From: an uncultured virus (IMG/VR IMGVR_UViG_2724679570_000003) | Lineage: Duplodnaviria; Heunggongvirae; Uroviricota; Caudoviricetes | IMG/VR virus record: IMGVR_UViG_2724679570_000003 | Direction: 5' to 3' (one strand) | Length of the DNA stretch: 64,000 nt | In this document: one piece after another, positions 21,913 through 63,066 of the stretch | Layout of the letters: every line of letters starts with the position of its first letter | Position numbering within the stretch: the stretch's first letter is position 1 | Position numbers and translations under genes: made by a program | The notes under the pieces: model-generated | What the model was told of the DNA's origin: nothing | The model's input: only the letters and a program-made list of their open reading frames with translations | The model's database searches: none

Positions 21913-22980
21913 TTAATCATCCCAAAAACTATCATCAGCAAACATATCATTAAGATCGTCTGCTGACAATCTAGTTTTTTCCTTTGTTCTTATATCTTCT
22001 TTCTTATTTTCGTTATTTTCTGTTCTTATAATTAAATCCTCTTGAACAGTTCTTCTTCTTTTTCTTTTTTTAGTCTCTTTTAATGCTTCACGAACTAATT
22101 CAATAGGTTCTCTAGGTAATTCACAACCACCTAAAAGTATTTTTGTATCATTAGTTGTATTTGTATTAAACTTATGAAAATCATAATATTCAAATTCTTC
22201 TTCTATTGATTGGAAGTCAAAATCTTGTATATTTATATCACCAATAATTTTATCACATTCAAAATTATCTGGCATATAAAATACACTTTCTTTAATGGAT
22301 TTATCTATAGCACTTTCCAAATCTTTTGAATTGTTATCTAATTTCAAGAATACTTTATATCCTCTTGTACAATGTACTTTAGCTGAGTCAGTTGTATCTA
22401 TCTTACCATTTGGTATATCATAACTTTCATTTAATTCTTTCATAGCTCTTATATTAATTTCTTCTTCACTACCTTTATTGTTATCAATATATCTTATAGA
22501 ATCAATATAACCTTTTTCCTTCAGATTAATCATTTCATTCCAAAATTTTGTAGCATTCTCAAAATCAATACTTGTTTCTGTTAAAGATGGAAAAGTTGCT
22601 ATTATGTTTATAGATTTTTCTGGACAAGCTTTTTTTATTAATTTTGAATACATAATTGTTGCCATTGCACCTGTCCCACCATTTGCACCAGTTAAGAATG
22701 TAACATACTTATGAGTTGTAAATTTTTTTATCATAACCATAAATTTTGGAGCTTCTTCTTTACAAAACGCTTCCATTTTATCCATGTCTTTACCACAACC
22801 ATCAGCGTTAGGAATATAGAAACAACGTCTTTCGCTATCGAAGTGTTCTAAATTTTCCATTTCACTCATATTAGAATTTAAAAATATAGTAGTATAACGC
22901 CTATCTAAATTCATTAAAGTATTTGCAAGTCTATTCCCTGCTCCTCCACAGCCTATAATTAGATTTTTCTCCTTTTCCAT
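21913..22980 (-). CDS. tubZ: tubulin/FtsZ-family partition GTPase TubZ
   Basis: IGCGGAGNR, DGCGKD and GANGGTG tubulin motifs; downstream of a small wHTH gene. Confidence 0.9.
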   Translation of the reverse strand: MEKEKNLIIGCGGAGNRLANTLMNLDRRYTTIFLNSNMSEMENLEHFDSERRCFYIPNADGCGKDMDKMEAFCKEEAPKFMVMIKKFTTHKYVTFLTGANGGTGAMATIMYSKLIKKACPEKSINIIATFPSLTETSIDFENATKFWNEMINLKEKGYIDSIRYIDNNKGSEEEINIRAMKELNESYDIPNGKIDTTDSAKVHCTRGYKVFLKLDNNSKDLESAIDKSIKESVFYMPDNFECDKIIGDINIQDFDFQSIEEEFEYYDFHKFNTNTTNDTKILLGGCELPREPIELVREALKETKKRKRRRTVQEDLIIRTENNENKKEDIRTKEKTRLSADDLNDMFADDSFWDD

Positions 22981-31613: not shown

Positions 31614-34175
31614 ATGAAAAGTCCACAGCTATTTTCATTATTAAAGTTAAAACTACAAGATTTTATAACATCAGAGAAAGAAAAAAAGACTAATAAAAAA
31701 GGTGTTACAAAAGAAAAAACAGTATATAAGTTAAATAATAATATAGTTTTGTCAAATGAACAATTTGAAGAAGCAACTATAAAGCAACAATACAACCATT
31801 TGTTTAGAATATTAAAAAATAAAAATAGAATAGAAAATAATTTTATAAAAGATGTATTATTTATAGATTGTAAAAATAATTCTAATTATCAAAAACAATT
31901 AGATGGGATTTTAAAAAAAGGTGTGTTTGTAAACAATATAAAATATAAATACTGGGGAAAATCAGCTAGTATGTCTAGAAATGGTATTTTAGGATTTGTG
32001 TCAGAAGAAATGTATGATGATATAGAAGAATATGCAATGATGGATATAAAATTTGATAAAACTATACTAAGTAAATTTGAAGCATATAAATGTTTACTAC
32101 TAAGTTCCTGTTTTTGTATAGAGGATGAATTACCTTACATGATAGTAGTTGATGATTATGAAACAGTTGTTAAAGATGTAAATATAAGATATGTAGATGA
32201 AAAGGAAGTTAATTACATTGATAATAAGACAGAAGAAGAAAAAATATTCAAGGAAAAGATAATAAAGCATGGTAAAAAAGATATTAACAATTGTATAAAT
32301 GATGGAGCAGGGTTCATATCCAAAGAATATGCTAAAAAAATAAGTGAGTATTTAGGGATAGAATATATTTTGTGTATAGCAATGTTACGAATTCCTTATG
32401 TGAAAGGTTTAGGTATAGCAATGGATTTTAAATCCTATTATAAATCTAAAGGAATAACGCATATAAAAGATATATGGGGAAAGGAACATAGAATAGAAGA
32501 TATAGATATTATATTAACTAAAAGTCAATATAAAGGATATAAGTATTTTAAACAAGATAATACATATAATGATTGGAAAAAGTATTTAAAATTATTAAAA
32601 AAATATAATTATTGTGTAGGTATAAGTAAATGGAATTATTCCCATGAAACTGAGCCAAAAATGACAAGGGCAAACTATCAAACGTTACAAACATTAGATA
32701 TTACAAAAGATGATTTAATTGAAATGTCTAAATACACTAGAAGTTGGATAGAAAAAATATTAGGTGGCGATTTATTATATGTTTATAAATATTTGGGGAT
32801 AGGAGAAAATACTGAACCATCAAACATTTATATGAAAGCTATAATGCTAAATCCTCAAATGATAAATGACATAAAAGTAAGAAGCTATTTGTATGGATTA
32901 TTAAAAAAGACAATAGATGAAATAAAAATAGGAAAAATATATATAAAAGGTGCTTTTAAATTCTTGATTCCTGATGTAATTATGATGTTAGAGTATATTG
33001 GGGGATTACCAATAAGAGGTTGCTTAAAAGAAGGAGAGATGTATGCAAAAGAACATGAAGGCGAATATGTTTTAAATAGAAATCCACATATTTGTAAAGC
33101 TGAACATATAATATTAAATGCTGTAAGTAATGATGATACTAAAAAATGGTTATTTCATTTAGAAAATGTATGTATGGTAAATGGATACGATGTAACCGCA
33201 CAATCTCTCAATGGGGCTGACTATGATGGTGATTTAGTGTTTGTGCATAACAATCCTATATTTATAAAAGGAATCAATAGAGATTCTTATATAGTGTTAG
33301 ATATAGAAGATAAAATAACAGCAAAAGAACAGCCTTATGATAAAAAACATATAATAGATTTTACTAAGAAGTCATTAAACAGTAGAATAGGTGAAATTTC
33401 TAATGGTGCATCTACATATCAAAATAAATTTGCTAAAGATGAAGAAACAAGAAAAAAATATGAAGATTATACTTGTTTATTATCAGTCATTAATGGAAAA
33501 GAAATTGATTATGTAAAAACAGGCATTCGTTGGAATGTGCCTAGAAATATTGCAAAAGGAGCAAAACCATTACCATATTTCTTAAAATATAAATATCCTA
33601 GCCAAAATAAACATAATAGATCAAAGACAAAAATGAATGAGCATTGTTGGTTTATTGAAAAGTGGGAAAGAAAACTTAAATTTAGTAAAAATTTCATCAA
33701 CACAAGTTATTGTATGATAAATAATAATATTCCTTTTGATGATGATAAATATAATAAAGTGGTAAAACTATTTGAACTATATAAGAAAGAATATAAAAGC
33801 AATAAAAATTTTGAAAATATGTGTAAGAATTATGAAAAATATCAATATGAATTGGAGGAACTAGACTTAAACAAAAAGGCAATAAAAGATTTTGAAATAG
33901 ACTGGGATAAATTTTATAAGAGATATAGAATTCAGTTTTTAGAAATTGTACCTAATCAATCAGAATTAGCAAATTATCTAGTAGAATTAGTTTATAATAA
34001 GATGAATGGTATGTATTATAATCAAATGTGGCAAATAGTTAAAGAGGGTATCTTAACCAATTTAAGAATAAATCAGATTAAGCCCATTTTAGTACCTAAA
34101 GAAACTAAAGATAATATGGGAACAGAGTATCTAGGTAGGTATTATAAATTTGTTGAATATAAGGGGTGCATATAA
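31614..34175 (+). CDS. yonO: YonO-like single-subunit double-psi-barrel RNA polymerase
   Basis: 853 aa; DGAG, NRNP and catalytic GADYDGD (DxDGD) motifs; upstream of an SPbeta-like late region. Confidence 0.88.
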   Translation: MKSPQLFSLLKLKLQDFITSEKEKKTNKKGVTKEKTVYKLNNNIVLSNEQFEEATIKQQYNHLFRILKNKNRIENNFIKDVLFIDCKNNSNYQKQLDGILKKGVFVNNIKYKYWGKSASMSRNGILGFVSEEMYDDIEEYAMMDIKFDKTILSKFEAYKCLLLSSCFCIEDELPYMIVVDDYETVVKDVNIRYVDEKEVNYIDNKTEEEKIFKEKIIKHGKKDINNCINDGAGFISKEYAKKISEYLGIEYILCIAMLRIPYVKGLGIAMDFKSYYKSKGITHIKDIWGKEHRIEDIDIILTKSQYKGYKYFKQDNTYNDWKKYLKLLKKYNYCVGISKWNYSHETEPKMTRANYQTLQTLDITKDDLIEMSKYTRSWIEKILGGDLLYVYKYLGIGENTEPSNIYMKAIMLNPQMINDIKVRSYLYGLLKKTIDEIKIGKIYIKGAFKFLIPDVIMMLEYIGGLPIRGCLKEGEMYAKEHEGEYVLNRNPHICKAEHIILNAVSNDDTKKWLFHLENVCMVNGYDVTAQSLNGADYDGDLVFVHNNPIFIKGINRDSYIVLDIEDKITAKEQPYDKKHIIDFTKKSLNSRIGEISNGASTYQNKFAKDEETRKKYEDYTCLLSVINGKEIDYVKTGIRWNVPRNIAKGAKPLPYFLKYKYPSQNKHNRSKTKMNEHCWFIEKWERKLKFSKNFINTSYCMINNNIPFDDDKYNKVVKLFELYKKEYKSNKNFENMCKNYEKYQYELEELDLNKKAIKDFEIDWDKFYKRYRIQFLEIVPNQSELANYLVELVYNKMNGMYYNQMWQIVKEGILTNLRINQIKPILVPKETKDNMGTEYLGRYYKFVEYKGCI

Positions 34176-58664: not shown

Positions 58665-59312
58665 GTGATAAATTTTAATGATTTAAAACAACCAAGGATA
58701 AAGAAAACCTTAGAGTTCCAAGGTGAAAAAATAAATATATTGAATCCAACTAAAGAAATAAAAGAAGAAATAATGAAAATAGCTGGTCAATATTCTAAAA
58801 TAGAAAATAATACAGTTAAAATAGATTCAAAATATGAAGATAACCCTCAATTTGCCCAAAATTTATTTAAATCTTTAGTTGAAGGAATAGAGTTTTCTGA
58901 TAATATAGAAGAATTTAAAGAAGTAATAGATAATCCCTCCCCTATAGTAATCGAAATTCAAGAAGAAATAAATATGATAGTTAGAACCATTGGAATAGAA
59001 AGAGCAAAAGCAATTAGCAATGAAGTAAAGGCGACAAAAGATTTAATAGTTGTTAATGATATAATGGAAGAAATGGATGAATTTTCAAAGAAAAATAAGG
59101 ATTTTCAAATACCTGAAATAGTTATTGAAAACAAAAAAGATATAACACCTAAGCCAAAAGCTAAAAGAAAACCAACTAAAAAAAAGACTAAAAAAGAAGA
59201 AAAAGTAGTTGATATAAAAACAGTTAAAAAAGAGAATAAAGAAAGTAAAGCTGATAACAAAGAAATAAAAATTGAAGAAACCACAGAGGATAAGGAAAAT
59301 GGACTTCAATAG
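58665..59312 (+). CDS. putative tail assembly chaperone
   Basis: Gene order after tail tube; Lys-rich C-terminus. Confidence 0.5.
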   Translation: MINFNDLKQPRIKKTLEFQGEKINILNPTKEIKEEIMKIAGQYSKIENNTVKIDSKYEDNPQFAQNLFKSLVEGIEFSDNIEEFKEVIDNPSPIVIEIQEEINMIVRTIGIERAKAISNEVKATKDLIVVNDIMEEMDEFSKKNKDFQIPEIVIENKKDITPKPKAKRKPTKKKTKKEEKVVDIKTVKKENKESKADNKEIKIEETTEDKENGLQ

Positions 59313-59787
59313 TTTAAGAGATTTATATAAGTATGCAGAAAAAGCACATGAAGAAGTTGCTACAAATGAAACTCAAGAAGGGATTAAAGAAGTAGCAAGT
59401 GATGTTGTAGATGAAGAAGTTTATAGTAAATATGATAATAAAGATAGAAGAGGAAAGCATGGTGGTGGATTAGGAGATATTAAAAATATGGTAGTACATC
59501 CTCCTAAAAAAATAGGAAATACTATAGAAGTGAAAATTACAAATGAAACTCCTTTAGACCCACCTGATGATGGGATACCAAGGAATTATAGATTGGATGA
59601 AGCTATTGAATATGGTGGCGATTATTATGAATATCCTAAAAGTAAAAAAAATAGAGATGAAGGAACTTATACATATCTGAAACCTAGACCATTTAACAGA
59701 AAAACAGAGGAAAGATTAAATGTAACAAGAGAACATGAAAAAGCGTATAAAAACGCTATGAAAGCTAAGGGGATAGATATTAAATAA
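59272..59787 (+). CDS. HK97 gp10-like tail/neck protein
   Basis: IEYG...PRPF motif; probable start ATG 59299. Confidence 0.55.
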   Translation: MKKPQRIRKMDFNSLRDLYKYAEKAHEEVATNETQEGIKEVASDVVDEEVYSKYDNKDRRGKHGGGLGDIKNMVVHPPKKIGNTIEVKITNETPLDPPDDGIPRNYRLDEAIEYGGDYYEYPKSKKNRDEGTYTYLKPRPFNRKTEERLNVTREHEKAYKNAMKAKGIDIK

Positions 59788-59909
59788 ATTTCCCCTATTT
59801 TTCTTTAAGTATATAGATGTTTTAAAATATCAATTTTATTAAAATTTTAGAACCTTGTATGTTTAAAGAAGAATCTAATATAACATTGGTAAAATATAGA
59901 ATAAAATCC

Positions 59910-59938
59910 TTGACGTTTAATCAATTTTAAGTTACAAT
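59910..59938 (+). promoter_or_regulatory. sigmaA promoter for the pseudoknot-repeat RNA
   Basis: TTGACG-17 bp-TACAAT. Confidence 0.65.
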
Positions 59939-59952
59939 ATAGGTGTGACAAT

Positions 59953-60218
59953 ATTAAGGTTCATCAAACACGTTTCACAATGTACGACAAAGAAACATTG
60001 TTAATACAAGTACGCTTCATGATGTGCGACAAAGAAACATTATTGATGTATATGAAATAAATAATAAATAACCATAGGAACTGTGGGGTTAGCTTGGTAA
60101 ATTTACTTACAATAGTAGGTATTACCCAAGAATCACATAGCTAAAGCTACGCTACGTGAGGTTCAAACAAATACGCTTCACAATGTGCGATAAACAACAT
60201 TGTTTACTGAACCTTAAT
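59953..60218 (+). ncRNA. array of three ~42-nt pseudoknot repeats (type III antitoxin-like)
   Basis: Units at 59964-60005, 60006-60047 and 60167-~60207 with covarying stems; enclosed by ATTAAGGTTCA/TGAACCTTAAT. Confidence 0.65.
60048..60166 (+). mobile_element. non-autonomous IS200/IS605 derivative (stand-alone omegaRNA scaffold)
   Basis: Near copy of 62414-62512; starts right after TTGAT and ends GAGGTTCAA. Confidence 0.8.
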
Positions 60219-60252
60219 TTTAATAAGAAATTATTATAAGGAGGATTTTCAA

Positions 60253-60420
60253 ATGTCAACATCTTCTTTTAATAAGAAAATAATAATAGATAACAAATCA
60301 GCATCTAAATTAATATCAAAGATTAATTTAGATAGTATAAATGGAACAAATTTTAAAGAAATAGATGTGAGAAAAGAGCTAAAAGAGAGTGCAAAATCAT
60401 TAAAAGCACTATTATTTTAA
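60253..60420 (+). CDS. 55-aa protein, possible orphan antitoxin
   Basis: MSTSSFNKKIII...ALLF; GGAGG RBS. Confidence 0.55.
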   Translation: MSTSSFNKKIIIDNKSASKLISKINLDSINGTNFKEIDVRKELKESAKSLKALLF

Positions 60421-60628
60421 TAGAAAGATTATAATCAATAGTATATGAAATTATTTTCTAAGATTAGTGTGGTGTCTAATCTTATCAATACTCAGGAATA
60501 TACTGTATTAATATGAGTTAGTATGTACCTTCATTAGAGGGAATAATCTAATGCACACCGTTAATTGAATTGAACAATAAAATAATTTGTTAGAAAGATT
60601 TTTAAAATTTTCATAAATTCTATTAGGA

Positions 60629-60937
60629 GTGAAAAAGGTTATGAATATAGATAATAACACGTCTCTTAATTGTATTAAATATATTGAGGATGATGGAAGT
60701 GTAACACTTTCTTTAGAAAAATTTGATATTGTAGTAAATGCAAATAATTATAATGATGCTATTTCTGAAATAGTTAAGGAATTAAAAGATTATATTGACG
60801 ATTATATAGCTGAACCTGATTATTGGAGTACAGATAGTAGAAGAAAATCTCAAGTTCAATTTCTTTCAGAGCTGTTTAAAAATACGAAAGAAGACAAAAT
60901 AAAGGAAATCATAAAATGCCGAAGTGCAAAGAACTAA
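60629..60937 (+). CDS. HicB-like antitoxin
   Basis: beta-beta-beta-alpha pattern (DGSVTLSL..DIVVNA....AI......DY); overlaps the hicA-like frame. Confidence 0.6.
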   Translation: MKKVMNIDNNTSLNCIKYIEDDGSVTLSLEKFDIVVNANNYNDAISEIVKELKDYIDDYIAEPDYWSTDSRRKSQVQFLSELFKNTKEDKIKEIIKCRSAKN

Positions 60938-61134
60938 AAAGATTTTGTGATAGAGAAGGATGGGAGCTATATAAAGATACTAACCATTATTATTATAGAA
61001 AAAAAGATTCAAATGGGAATATAAGAAAAACTAAAGTATCACGAGGGTCTGGAGAAATCAAACATTAGTTATGGAGGCATATATTGAAAGACCAATTAGG
61101 TGTAACACAAGAATATTTTAATAGTATTATATAA
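60916..61134 (+). pseudogene. HicA-like toxin with in-frame TAG
   Basis: MPKCKELKRFCDREGW...TKVSRGSGEIKH*LWRHILKDQLG...; stop at 61066-61068. Confidence 0.7.
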
Positions 61135-61185
61135 AAACTTCTAATCAATAAAAGTTAGGAGTTTTTTATTTTGCAAAATAATATT

Positions 61186-61213
61186 TGACAAATATAAAAT
61201 AATTTGATAATAT
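61186..61213 (+). promoter_or_regulatory. phage-type sigmaA promoter driving tnpB
   Basis: TTGACA-aatataaaataatttga-TAATAT. Confidence 0.65.
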
Positions 61214-61240
61214 TGTTTTATATAAAGGTGGTGTTAATGA

Positions 61241-62395
61241 ATGACAATACAAAAAGGATTTAAATATAGAATATATCCTAATAAAACTCAAATAGAACAG
61301 ATAGAATTAAGTTTTAAAGCTAAAAGATATGTTTGGAATTATTTCTTGAATATTAATAAACATAGACTTCAACATCATAAAAATATATTAAACTATACTA
61401 AAATGTCAAGATTATTAACACTGCTTAAAAAGAAAAATATATGGCTTAAACAATGTGAAAAATCTGTATTGCAAAATACTTTAAAATTTCAATATGAAAC
61501 ATTTTTAAAATTCTTTAAAAAAGAATGTGGATTTCCTAAGTTTAAATCATATAAAAATAATTATCAATCTATTAAAATAAATTTTACAAACAATAATATA
61601 GAGATATTAGAAAAAGAAATAAGATATACATCTACAGGTAAATATAAAAAACAAAATTGTAAAATTAAATTACCTAAATTAAAACAAATTAGAATAGCTT
61701 ATTCAAGACAGTATCAAGGCAGAATAGTATCATCTACTTTATCAAGAGATACGAATGGTAAATATTATATCAGTTTATGCTGTGTAGATGTACCACAAGA
61801 AAATAAAGAGAAAACAGGTTTAGTAGTTGGAATAGATTTAGGCATTAAAGAATTTGCAACTACAAGTGATAATAAAATTATTTCTAATCCTAAATATTAT
61901 AGAAAATATGAAGATAAATTAATAAAAGCTCAAAGAAAACTTAGTAAACGTAAAAAAGGTAGTAATAATAGAAATAAACAAAGATTGAAAGTAAATAAAT
62001 ATCATAAGAAAATATGTAATTGTAGGATAGATTTTCTTCAGAAACTAACTACAGATTTTATTAATAAATATGATATTATTTGTTTAGAAGATTTAAATGT
62101 TAGTGGTATGTTACAAAATCATAAATTAGCTAAAAGCATAGCAGATGCAAGTTTCTTTGAGTTCAATAGAGAGTTAGAATATAAATCTAAATGGTATGAT
62201 AAAACAACATCTAAAATAGATAGATTTTATCCTAGTAGTCAATTATGTAGTAATTGTGACAATCAATCACAACAAACTAAAGATTTAGGAGTTAGGACTT
62301 ATATATGTCCAAAATGTGGGTTAGAAATAGATAGAGATTATAATGCTAGTATAAATATTTTAAATGAAGGTTTAAGATTATTGAAAGCAAGTTAA
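61241..62395 (+). CDS. tnpB: IS200/IS605-family RNA-guided nuclease TnpB
   Basis: FKYRIYP N-terminus; RuvC GIDLG / LEDL / DRDYNAS all intact; CxxC..CPxC Zn finger. Confidence 0.95.
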   Translation: MTIQKGFKYRIYPNKTQIEQIELSFKAKRYVWNYFLNINKHRLQHHKNILNYTKMSRLLTLLKKKNIWLKQCEKSVLQNTLKFQYETFLKFFKKECGFPKFKSYKNNYQSIKINFTNNNIEILEKEIRYTSTGKYKKQNCKIKLPKLKQIRIAYSRQYQGRIVSSTLSRDTNGKYYISLCCVDVPQENKEKTGLVVGIDLGIKEFATTSDNKIISNPKYYRKYEDKLIKAQRKLSKRKKGSNNRNKQRLKVNKYHKKICNCRIDFLQKLTTDFINKYDIICLEDLNVSGMLQNHKLAKSIADASFFEFNRELEYKSKWYDKTTSKIDRFYPSSQLCSNCDNQSQQTKDLGVRTYICPKCGLEIDRDYNASINILNEGLRLLKAS

Positions 62396-62413
62396 AAATA
62401 ATTTAAATATATA

Positions 62414-62530
62414 AATAAATAACCATAGGAACTATGGAGATAGCTTGGTAAATTTACTTACAATAATAGGTATTACCCAAGAATCCCGGGACTTTTGTCG
62501 TGGGAGGTTCAAAATATTGCCAACCTAGAA
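62414..62530 (+). ncRNA. TnpB omegaRNA scaffold, right end and guide
   Basis: Right-end hairpin CCCGGGAC-TTTT-GTCGTGGG then AGGTTCAA; guide begins at 62513. Confidence 0.75.
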
Positions 62531-62594
62531 AAAGTTTTTATATATCTTGTATATTATAAAATTATTTTATATTTGTCAATATTTTTTATACTAC

Positions 62595-62620
62595 TTACTC
62601 ACGACTGAAGTCACGAGTAT
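62595..62620 (-). mobile_element. IS200/IS605-type end hairpin remnant, inverted
   Basis: Minus strand ACTCGTGAC-TTCA-GTCGTGAGT resembles the right-end hairpin. Confidence 0.5.
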
Positions 62621-62685
62621 GCGTGGTGCTTTTATAATCAATTTGTTATAATATATACATATATTAAAATTATATATGGAATTAT

Positions 62686-63066
62686 TTGTATATTGGAGGT
62701 ATCATTGTGAAAAAGAAAAAGTTTTTTAAATTGGTCTTGCTATGTTTAAGTTTTATTTTATGTTTAGGATTGTTTGTTGGGTGTAGTGATAGTTCAGGCA
62801 GAGGTAATGAGAGTGACGAAAGGTATAAAGCATATGAAACAGCAAAATCTTATGTTGAAGATGAACTAAAATCTCCAACTACAGCTGAGTTTGCAAGTAT
62901 AAATGAAGCAAAAATAACTAAATTAGGAAAAGATGAATATCGAATCGAGTCTTATGTAAACGCACAAAATAGTTTCGGTGCAAAAATAAAAAGTACATTT
63001 AGTTGCAGAATTGTTGTTGATTATGACAAAGAAAAAGTAGATTGCTATGATTTGGTAATAAAATAA
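62686..63066 (+). CDS. lipoprotein
   Basis: Signal peptide with lipobox FVGC; LKSP.TAEF...NSFGA; probable start GTG 62707. Confidence 0.8.
   Translation: MYIGGIIVKKKKFFKLVLLCLSFILCLGLFVGCSDSSGRGNESDERYKAYETAKSYVEDELKSPTTAEFASINEAKITKLGKDEYRIESYVNAQNSFGAKIKSTFSCRIVVDYDKEKVDCYDLVIK

Follow-up and report, generated by a model that had tools for sequence, protein, structure and literature searches.

A stand-alone TnpB omegaRNA scaffold inside a putative CptI-type antitoxin array of a phage-plasmid, a candidate trans-acting guide against unbroken arrays

A repeat array that we assign to the CptI antitoxin type is split, on a phage-plasmid, by a 119-nt TnpB omegaRNA scaffold detached from the nuclease gene. 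The array lies in a 64,000-nucleotide stretch of DNA from an uncultured virus, the whole of which we call the window and to which all coordinates refer. We are highly confident that an IS200/IS605-family element with an ISDra2-like TnpB and the target TTGAT inserted into the linker of this array, and that everything up to the last tnpB codons was later lost. The analysis shows the anatomy of the locus, the empty alleles in relatives, the target motif of the family, a conserved scaffold structure and an intact nuclease.

Tubulin-like, ParB-like and portal-like proteins are among the products of the window (~24% G+C), and on these grounds we regard it as a phage-plasmid. Its nearest named relatives are Clostridium botulinum plasmids of 196-215 kb, and a megablast search of 59300-62700 against phages returned no match. 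An 853-aa product (31614-34172) matches PF05183, the RNA-dependent RNA polymerase domain of eukaryotic type (E 1.4e-19), and 21916-22980 encodes a tubulin/FtsZ-like protein; large phage-plasmids typically carry such proteins.

The array follows a promoter-like site (59910-59938, + strand; TTGACG, 17 nt, TACAAT) that is identical in one relative (L017) and has two differences in another (L018). Rfam family RF02920 (Fusobacteriales-1, typed "Cis-reg") matches 59925-60043 on the + strand with 68.4 bits (gathering score 52.1). Three viral contigs share the gene neighbourhood and have an unbroken array; behind the same promoter and leader these relatives carry 2-3 perfect 42-nt repeats (..CATTGTTGAT|ACAAATACGCTTCACAATGTGCGACAAAGAAA..), a terminator and a 174-aa ORF. 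The sole informative match of this ORF, obtained in a search of PDB sequences, was the CptN toxin (PDB 4rmo, E 1.1e-7), and Pfam and PADLOC returned no match for it. According to Table 2 of PMC3401426, the cptIN family has repeats of 40-48 nt in 1.9-3.4 copies, and tandem repeats within 40-48 nt behind a promoter are likewise present in the window. Thus, the RF02920 neighbourhood, the terminator and CptN-like ORF of the relatives, and the fit of repeat length and number to cptIN argue that the window array is a CptI-type type III antitoxin array without its toxin gene and terminator. The initial annotation had spoken of an antitoxin array, and the RF02920 score and the CptN-like gene behind the arrays of relatives bear this out. 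The assignment would give a function, that of a CptI-type antitoxin array, to RF02920, which is listed only as cis-regulatory; a full-text literature search found no paper under the motif name Fusobacteriales-1.

Repeats 1 and 2 of the window array occupy 59965-60005 and 60007-60047, and repeat 3, altered beyond its nucleotide 24, occupies 60168-60208 (all + strand). Homology to the relatives ends at 60047, resumes inside repeat 3 and is full again from 60433. No terminator-like site was found on the + strand between the array promoter and a 55-aa ORF (60253-60420, + strand), which takes the position of the cptN toxin gene and belongs to no known family by family and sequence searches. A tblastn search of the window for a CptN toxin gene gave two weak matches elsewhere (E 0.11 and 7.7) and none at the array locus, and 60190-60440, the segment that replaces the toxin gene, had no match in plasmids. 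At the position of the relatives' terminator lies the 3' arm (60201-60221, + strand) of a 21-nt inverted repeat whose partner is at 59950-59970 (86%); it is not found in L017 or L018. This inverted repeat encloses both the array and the insert, and its 3' arm resembles an inverted array leader. Further downstream, the non-coding segment 60433-60569 is 90-94% identical in relatives whereas the adjoining genes are only 72-77% identical; Rfam returned no match for it at E<=1, and it may be a small RNA or control region ahead of a PHD-like/HicA-like gene pair (60629-61068).

The boundaries of the insert follow from the repeat period. The repeats start at 59965, 60007 and 60168, and because their spacings are 42 and 161 nt, 119 nt are extra, corresponding to 60048-60166 on the + strand. 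Removing this segment restores the period, as had been described from the sequence at the outset, and there is no target duplication around it. The insert starts immediately 3' of TTGAT (60043-60047, + strand), the 3' end of repeat 2 that was taken by the insertion; the motif recurs at left-end junctions of the family and, in the account of PMC8612924, is the TAM of ISDra2. The insertion point proposed in the initial annotation, directly 3' of TTGAT, agrees with the empty junctions seen in relatives. Also as annotated, the left-end hairpin of the IS family (ACTCGTGACTTCAGT...) is not present in the insert, and GTATATGA (60048-60055, + strand) and the scaffold follow TTGAT directly. On direct reading, the tnpB of a Clostridium relative (L002) ends in ..AGTATTTAA and continues with AATAAAT..AACC as the insert does, and alignment with L002 suggests that the 8 nt at the 5' edge of the insert are probably the C-terminal codons and stop of the lost tnpB. 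Relative to L002, the A-rich spacer upstream of the first scaffold helix contains a 7-nt tandem duplication (AATAAAT). At the other edge the insert terminates in GAGGTTCAA, the same 3' terminus as that of the resident right end downstream of tnpB. The insert is thus a right-end remnant, without tnpB and without a left end, whose left breakpoint coincides with the left boundary of the element.

By family architecture the predicted guide is the sequence 3' of the right end, as the initial annotation had it; here this is the start of array repeat 3 (60167-60190, + strand), and 24 of its 24 positions match the repeats of relatives. The uninterrupted junction in relatives reads CATTGTTGAT|ACAAATACGCTTCAC, giving the empty site TTGAT|ACAAATACGCTTCACAATGT, and their TTGAT|ACAAATACGCTTCACAATGTGCGA agrees at every position with TTGAT and the 24 nt found 3' of the window insert. 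The search of relatives for the empty allele, suggested with the original proposal, therefore did find uninterrupted arrays with a perfect TTGAT plus 24-nt match. An exact 25-mer (TTGAT plus 20 nt) occurred in 5/185 fetched loci, from four records, with two perfect empty sites each in L016, L017 and a named plasmid (L181) and one in the contig represented by L018 and L022. Within the window, the only other near-matches of the 20-nt guide lie at 59964 (repeat 1), preceded by GTTCA, and at 60006 (repeat 2), preceded by TTAAT (60001-60005); each has 3 mismatches, so the window contains no perfect self-target. The CptI-like arrays of Clostridioides phages are without TTGAT and hence are not targets. 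An RF02920 search of the genome of L002 (G007) gave no match; since the control genomes were silent as well, this search was uninformative.

Divergence is unevenly spread over the array. Repeats 1-2 differ from L017 at 8/83 positions and the leader at 3/177, while L017 and L018 have identical repeats although their leaders diverge. The first 24 nt of the guide show 0 differences from the relatives' repeat, whereas repeats 1 and 2 have 3 each in the same 20 nt. We considered escape from self-targeting as the main cause of TTAAT and the mismatches in repeat 2, and rejected it since repeat 1, never with TTGAT, changed equally. The variants of repeat 1 (CGTTTC, GTACG) are those of the Rfam consensus, which makes a mosaic array likelier than escape mutations.

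The interrupted array itself was found in one instance only, in the window, and was absent from all related records examined; these have intact cptIN, a clean cptIN deletion or other cassettes (G001/L183, L023). In one of them (L182), which is 99.4% identical to the window as far as 59946, the whole of cptIN is cleanly deleted. Comparison with G001/L183, L182, L022 and L023 marks the locus at 59875-61135 as a swap site, for which we count at least five alleles: intact cptIN, the clean cptIN deletion, the window form, a ParE-like pair, and a 486-aa gene that has ends of its own. We read the 486-aa gene as TnpB-like by its N-terminal sequence; Pfam assigned it to no family.

We next turn to the scaffold. 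In a self-comparison of the window, 60063-60134 aligned to 62414-62485, downstream of the resident tnpB, with 94% identity over 72 nt and no gaps, and a 25-nt core (TAGCTTGGTAAATTTACTTACAATA) occurred in exactly 2 copies in the 64-kb window, at 60090 and 62441, with 0 expected (100 shuffles). The core of the insert is 98.6% identical to the right end of L002 over 74 nt, as against 94% to the resident right end, and its last hairpin differs from the resident one, so the insert was not copied from the resident right end. The initial description of 60048-60166 as a close copy of the post-tnpB scaffold therefore stands as to likeness and needs amendment as to parentage: on these comparisons the insert is the remnant of a sibling ISDra2-like IS605-family element, closer to the right end of the Clostridium relative than to the resident one. 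An exact 23-nt scaffold core had 0 matches in viral_contigs and 0 in metagenome_contigs, and L002 was the sole other carrier of the subtype found.

Secondary structure was assessed on an alignment of 15 family members, which supports three helices, each with covariation. The insert keeps 18/19 consensus pairs, the single exception being an A.C in helix P3. Helix P1 (CCATAG GAA CTGTGG; 60072-60086) keeps 6/6 pairs, helix P2 with its inner hairpin (60093-60130) keeps 5/5, and helix P3 (CACATAGC..GCTACGTG; 60134-60158), the right-end hairpin, keeps 7/8, two of them through compensatory change (all + strand). Compared with the resident P3, that of the insert has compensatory changes at two pairs, a single A.C mismatch and, on the loop side, a tandem duplication of 5 nt (GCTAC). 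Larger insertions in the P3 loop exist in scaffold copies behind full-length tnpB, for example in L036, and the change in the insert therefore need not disable it. Separately, Rfam RF02841 (Enterococcus sRNA 70) matched 60066-60225 weakly and only in part, at 25.5 bits (gathering score 115), and the 5' part of the scaffold had BLAST matches in Enterococcus phages and plasmids; the RF02841 sRNA family may itself be a TnpB omegaRNA.

The nuclease is encoded on the same replicon about 1 kb from the insert, by an ISDra2-like tnpB of 384 codons (61241-62395, + strand). We take the catalytic residues of ISDra2 TnpB to be D191, E278 and D361. In the alignment to PDB 8bf8 (E 2.5e-73) they correspond to D199, E283 and D366 of the resident protein, which thus has an intact RuvC triad and matches PF01385, PF07282 and PF12323, in keeping with the ISDra2-type TnpB that had been annotated; D191A is named in PMC8612924. 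The omegaRNA scaffold, or right end, of the resident element spans 62396-62512 and is followed by its guide (AATATTGCCAACCTAGAAAA; 62513-62532, both + strand). Its left end, 57 nt with a subterminal hairpin, lies at 62580-62636 on the - strand, is 85% identical to the left end of L002 in reversed orientation, and adjoins TTGAT (62637-62641, - strand; ATCAA on the + strand). Element-free relatives read TTGAT|AATATTGCCAACC at the resident site, but on the opposite strand. The gene is bracketed by the arms, 97% identical, of a 29-nt inverted repeat: the left arm, with a promoter-like TTGACA, 17 nt, TAATAT, is ahead of tnpB (61185-61213, + strand), and the right arm is at 62551-62579 (- strand). 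The simplest reading is that an inversion between these arms split tnpB and the right end from the left end, and the resident element can consequently no longer transpose. Despite the rearrangement tnpB is intact, and it now sits behind the promoter-like site. In the element-free relatives L022 and L182, the sequence of the 29-nt repeat arm is a native promoter sequence. A scan of 75 window ORFs (10 + 65) detected no TnpA (Y1 transposase), and since the insert also has no left end, it would be immobile now.

A complete member of the family (L155) has the order TTGAT|left-end hairpin, tnpA (Y1 type), tnpB and a right end terminating in ..GAGGTTCAA, and L002 is an intact tnpB-only element whose TnpB is 87% identical to the resident one. 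The left-end hairpin motif was present in 39 viral loci, 11 of them with tnpB downstream, and TTGAT lies just upstream of the left end in 10/11 of these tnpB-linked loci as well as flanking L002, L003, L004 and L015. These counts uphold the TTGAT-type target motif named in the initial annotation and parallel ISDra2, for which PMC8612924 describes insertion 3' of TTGAT without duplication and TTGAT as the TAM. The conserved inter-repeat linker TTGAT implies that CptI-type arrays would be built-in landing sites for ISDra2-type elements.

Other derivatives of the family have also lost their left end or their tnpB. L015 is a further derivative without a left end, flush after TTGAT and decayed. Of 84 metagenome loci with at least 290 nt upstream, 4 are without tnpB, representing two distinct sites, one conserved site on three contigs (L067, L085 and L122) and L119. 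Across the three left-endless derivatives (the insert, L015 and L119), the 5' edge is flush at the target motif, probably so in L119, and in two of the three (the insert and L119) only a few bases separate it from the tnpB stop; L015 differs. Such remnants may have originated through deletion within the element, through aberrant excision starting at its left boundary or in some more exotic way; as a long shot, the guide RNA itself could have been copied into its target, in place of any DNA deletion. At the conserved site of L067, L085 and L122, a chromosomal one, a sister-family omegaRNA scaffold stands with promoter-like sequence upstream, and its neighbours are a gene and a probable lipoprotein gene. 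The viral contig L151 contains, at 2000-2220, a PATE, a gene-less element of ~210 nt whose left end has the hairpin and whose right end is omegaRNA-like, just upstream of a 166-aa ORF that partly overlaps it. In another tnpB element of the relatives (L147, L184), ~800 nt separate the left end from tnpB. Part of this interval is richer in G+C and looks structured, and may be an RNA element within the IS, intron-like or of another kind; the interval also contains an HTH gene in the opposite orientation.

A DNA metagenome run (X1) with 9% of words shared was compared with 59800-62700 at 85% likeness. One contig joins 60047, the array TTGAT, to 61185 in the tnpB 5' region, possibly with ~56 unplaced bases between, which is the length of the family left end. 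Two further contigs connect the right end (62513) with the left end (62637), on opposite strands. The joints hint at a full-length element inside an array and at tandem or circular forms; their source is relatives, and we treat them as leads only. The proposed ancestral order would be array TTGAT, 57-nt left end, tnpB, right end and ACAAATACGC.

Together, these features suggest how the remnant could still act. The 119-nt scaffold remains flush with TTGAT on one side and with the next repeat on the other, and the antitoxin promoter (59910-59938) would drive a transcript through repeats 1-2, the scaffold and repeat 3. The intact TnpB 1 kb away, whose own scaffold is of the same subtype, would bind the stand-alone scaffold, and ACAAATACGCTTCACAATGT... 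would serve it as a second guide. The only perfect targets would be arrays without the insert (TTGAT plus repeat), carried by sibling phage-plasmids; the related host antitoxin arrays that the initial annotation also named are candidate targets. Such an empty allele would be cut and repaired from the filled one, in ordinary TnpB homing and maintenance exerted in trans, with no separate adaptation. The logic of TnpB homing is set out in PMC8612924 and PMC10055086; according to the introduction of PMC10691335 stand-alone omegaRNAs work in trans, and according to the discussion of PMC10055086 PATEs encode omegaRNAs on which TnpB acts in trans. We give about an even chance to some trans-acting, second-guide activity of this kind against unbroken arrays, through the predicted transcription, loading and cutting.

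The locus could also be approached as wreckage, and we consider it quite possible, at somewhat less than even chances, that the insertion broke the array, that loss of the toxin gene followed, and that the locus drifts together with an inert remnant whose RNA is not loaded or is unproductive. The toxin gene and terminator are gone, repeats 1-2 have diverged and repeat 3 is altered beyond nucleotide 24, all of which would be expected of a scar, and the frequent turnover of the locus (the cptIN deletion in L182, the cassettes in G001/L183 and L023) and the decay of L015, the other derivative without a left end, point the same way. The scaffold itself can be read in both directions. Its P3 carries the 5-nt duplication and the A.C mismatch in a stem that differs from the resident P3, and the AATAAAT duplication lies upstream of P1; against decay, its 72-nt core is gapless and shares 94-98.6% identity with right ends from elements that look active, 18/19 pairs are kept, and the size of the P3 loop also varies in tnpB-linked copies. 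Nor does drift sit easily with a guide whose first 24 nt are unchanged while repeats 1 and 2 have each accumulated 3 differences in the same 20 nt.

That same unchanged guide, in an array that has otherwise diverged, is also what would be expected if the guide were kept by selection because cutting or converting rival cptI arrays brings a benefit, with the toxin-less array and its strong antitoxin promoter as the expression platform; we consider this unlikely. The idea draws on the perfect TAM plus 24-nt targets in sibling replicons (1-2 each), on a resident tnpB that is intact although immobilised by inversion, and on the other TTGAT-type site of the window array, which is TTAAT with 3 mismatches and hence is no self-target. 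However, since the guide of every IS605 right end fits the empty site of its own element, selection is not required to explain the match, and the loss of the self-target is weakened as an argument by repeat 1, never with TTGAT, having changed as much as repeat 2, and by its CGTTTC and GTACG variants, those of the Rfam consensus, which point to a mosaic array. The interrupted allele, moreover, was seen once only. It is correspondingly improbable that the remains of the antitoxin array are a platform for a stand-alone TnpB guide with which the plasmid cuts or converts rival cptIN loci in the same cell; if true, this would be a device for RNA-guided exclusion and gene drive directed against a competitor's addiction or defence module. 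For the trans-acting second guide that we favour, ordinary homing logic would suffice.

Among known systems, the closest are the stand-alone omegaRNAs of OMEGA systems (Altae-Tran et al. 2021, as presented in PMC10691335), which like the window insert consist of a scaffold with a flanking guide and no effector or transposase gene, in genomes that also encode an effector called compatible, and which are reported there to be active in trans. According to that account they are evidently mobilised, whereas the window insert has no left end; unlike them, it lies in a phage-plasmid, embedded in a type III antitoxin array with which it is probably co-transcribed. The concept of a stand-alone trans-acting omegaRNA is thus already published (PMC10691335), and relative to that account the location inside a type III antitoxin array is new. 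PATEs (Meers et al. 2023, PMC10055086) are similar in having no protein gene, a right end with an omegaRNA-like scaffold and a need for TnpB in trans, but as described there they have left-end and right-end hairpins and are TnpA-mobile, whereas the insert is a right end only. We accordingly rejected the insert as a complete IS200/IS605 element or PATE, since no left end with a subterminal hairpin lies beside TTGAT. The system shares with ISDra2 TnpB and its right-end RNA (Karvelis et al. 2021, PMC8612924; PDB 8bf8/8exa/8h1j), as characterised in that work, insertion at TTGAT without duplication, a guide from the DNA 3' of the right end and the same logic of donor-joint cutting. Unlike ISDra2 as described, the window scaffold lies almost entirely 3' of the tnpB stop (~117 nt), and the resident element has no tnpA and an inverted left end. 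With cptIN (Blower et al. 2012, PMC3401426; 4rmo), going by the features given for that family, the window shares a promoter and 42-nt tandem repeats, and the relatives also share the terminator and a CptN-like toxin; the window differs in having no toxin gene or terminator, diverged repeats and an array split by 119 nt. A CRISPR or other multi-guide array was rejected, as there is a single stand-alone scaffold and only two scaffold copies occur in the window.

Phage homing endonucleases cut the allele that is without their gene, and the gene is then copied in by repair. If active, the window system would resemble the genes of these enzymes, in that it would cut the allele without it and could be copied in by repair; unlike them, it would be RNA-guided, with guide and nuclease as two loci 1 kb apart. 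The proposed mechanism would not go further than the TnpB homing and the stand-alone omegaRNAs active in trans that are already published, and the locus would be a clean natural case of a TnpB guide detached from its nuclease gene, with perfect, identifiable targets in sibling replicons.
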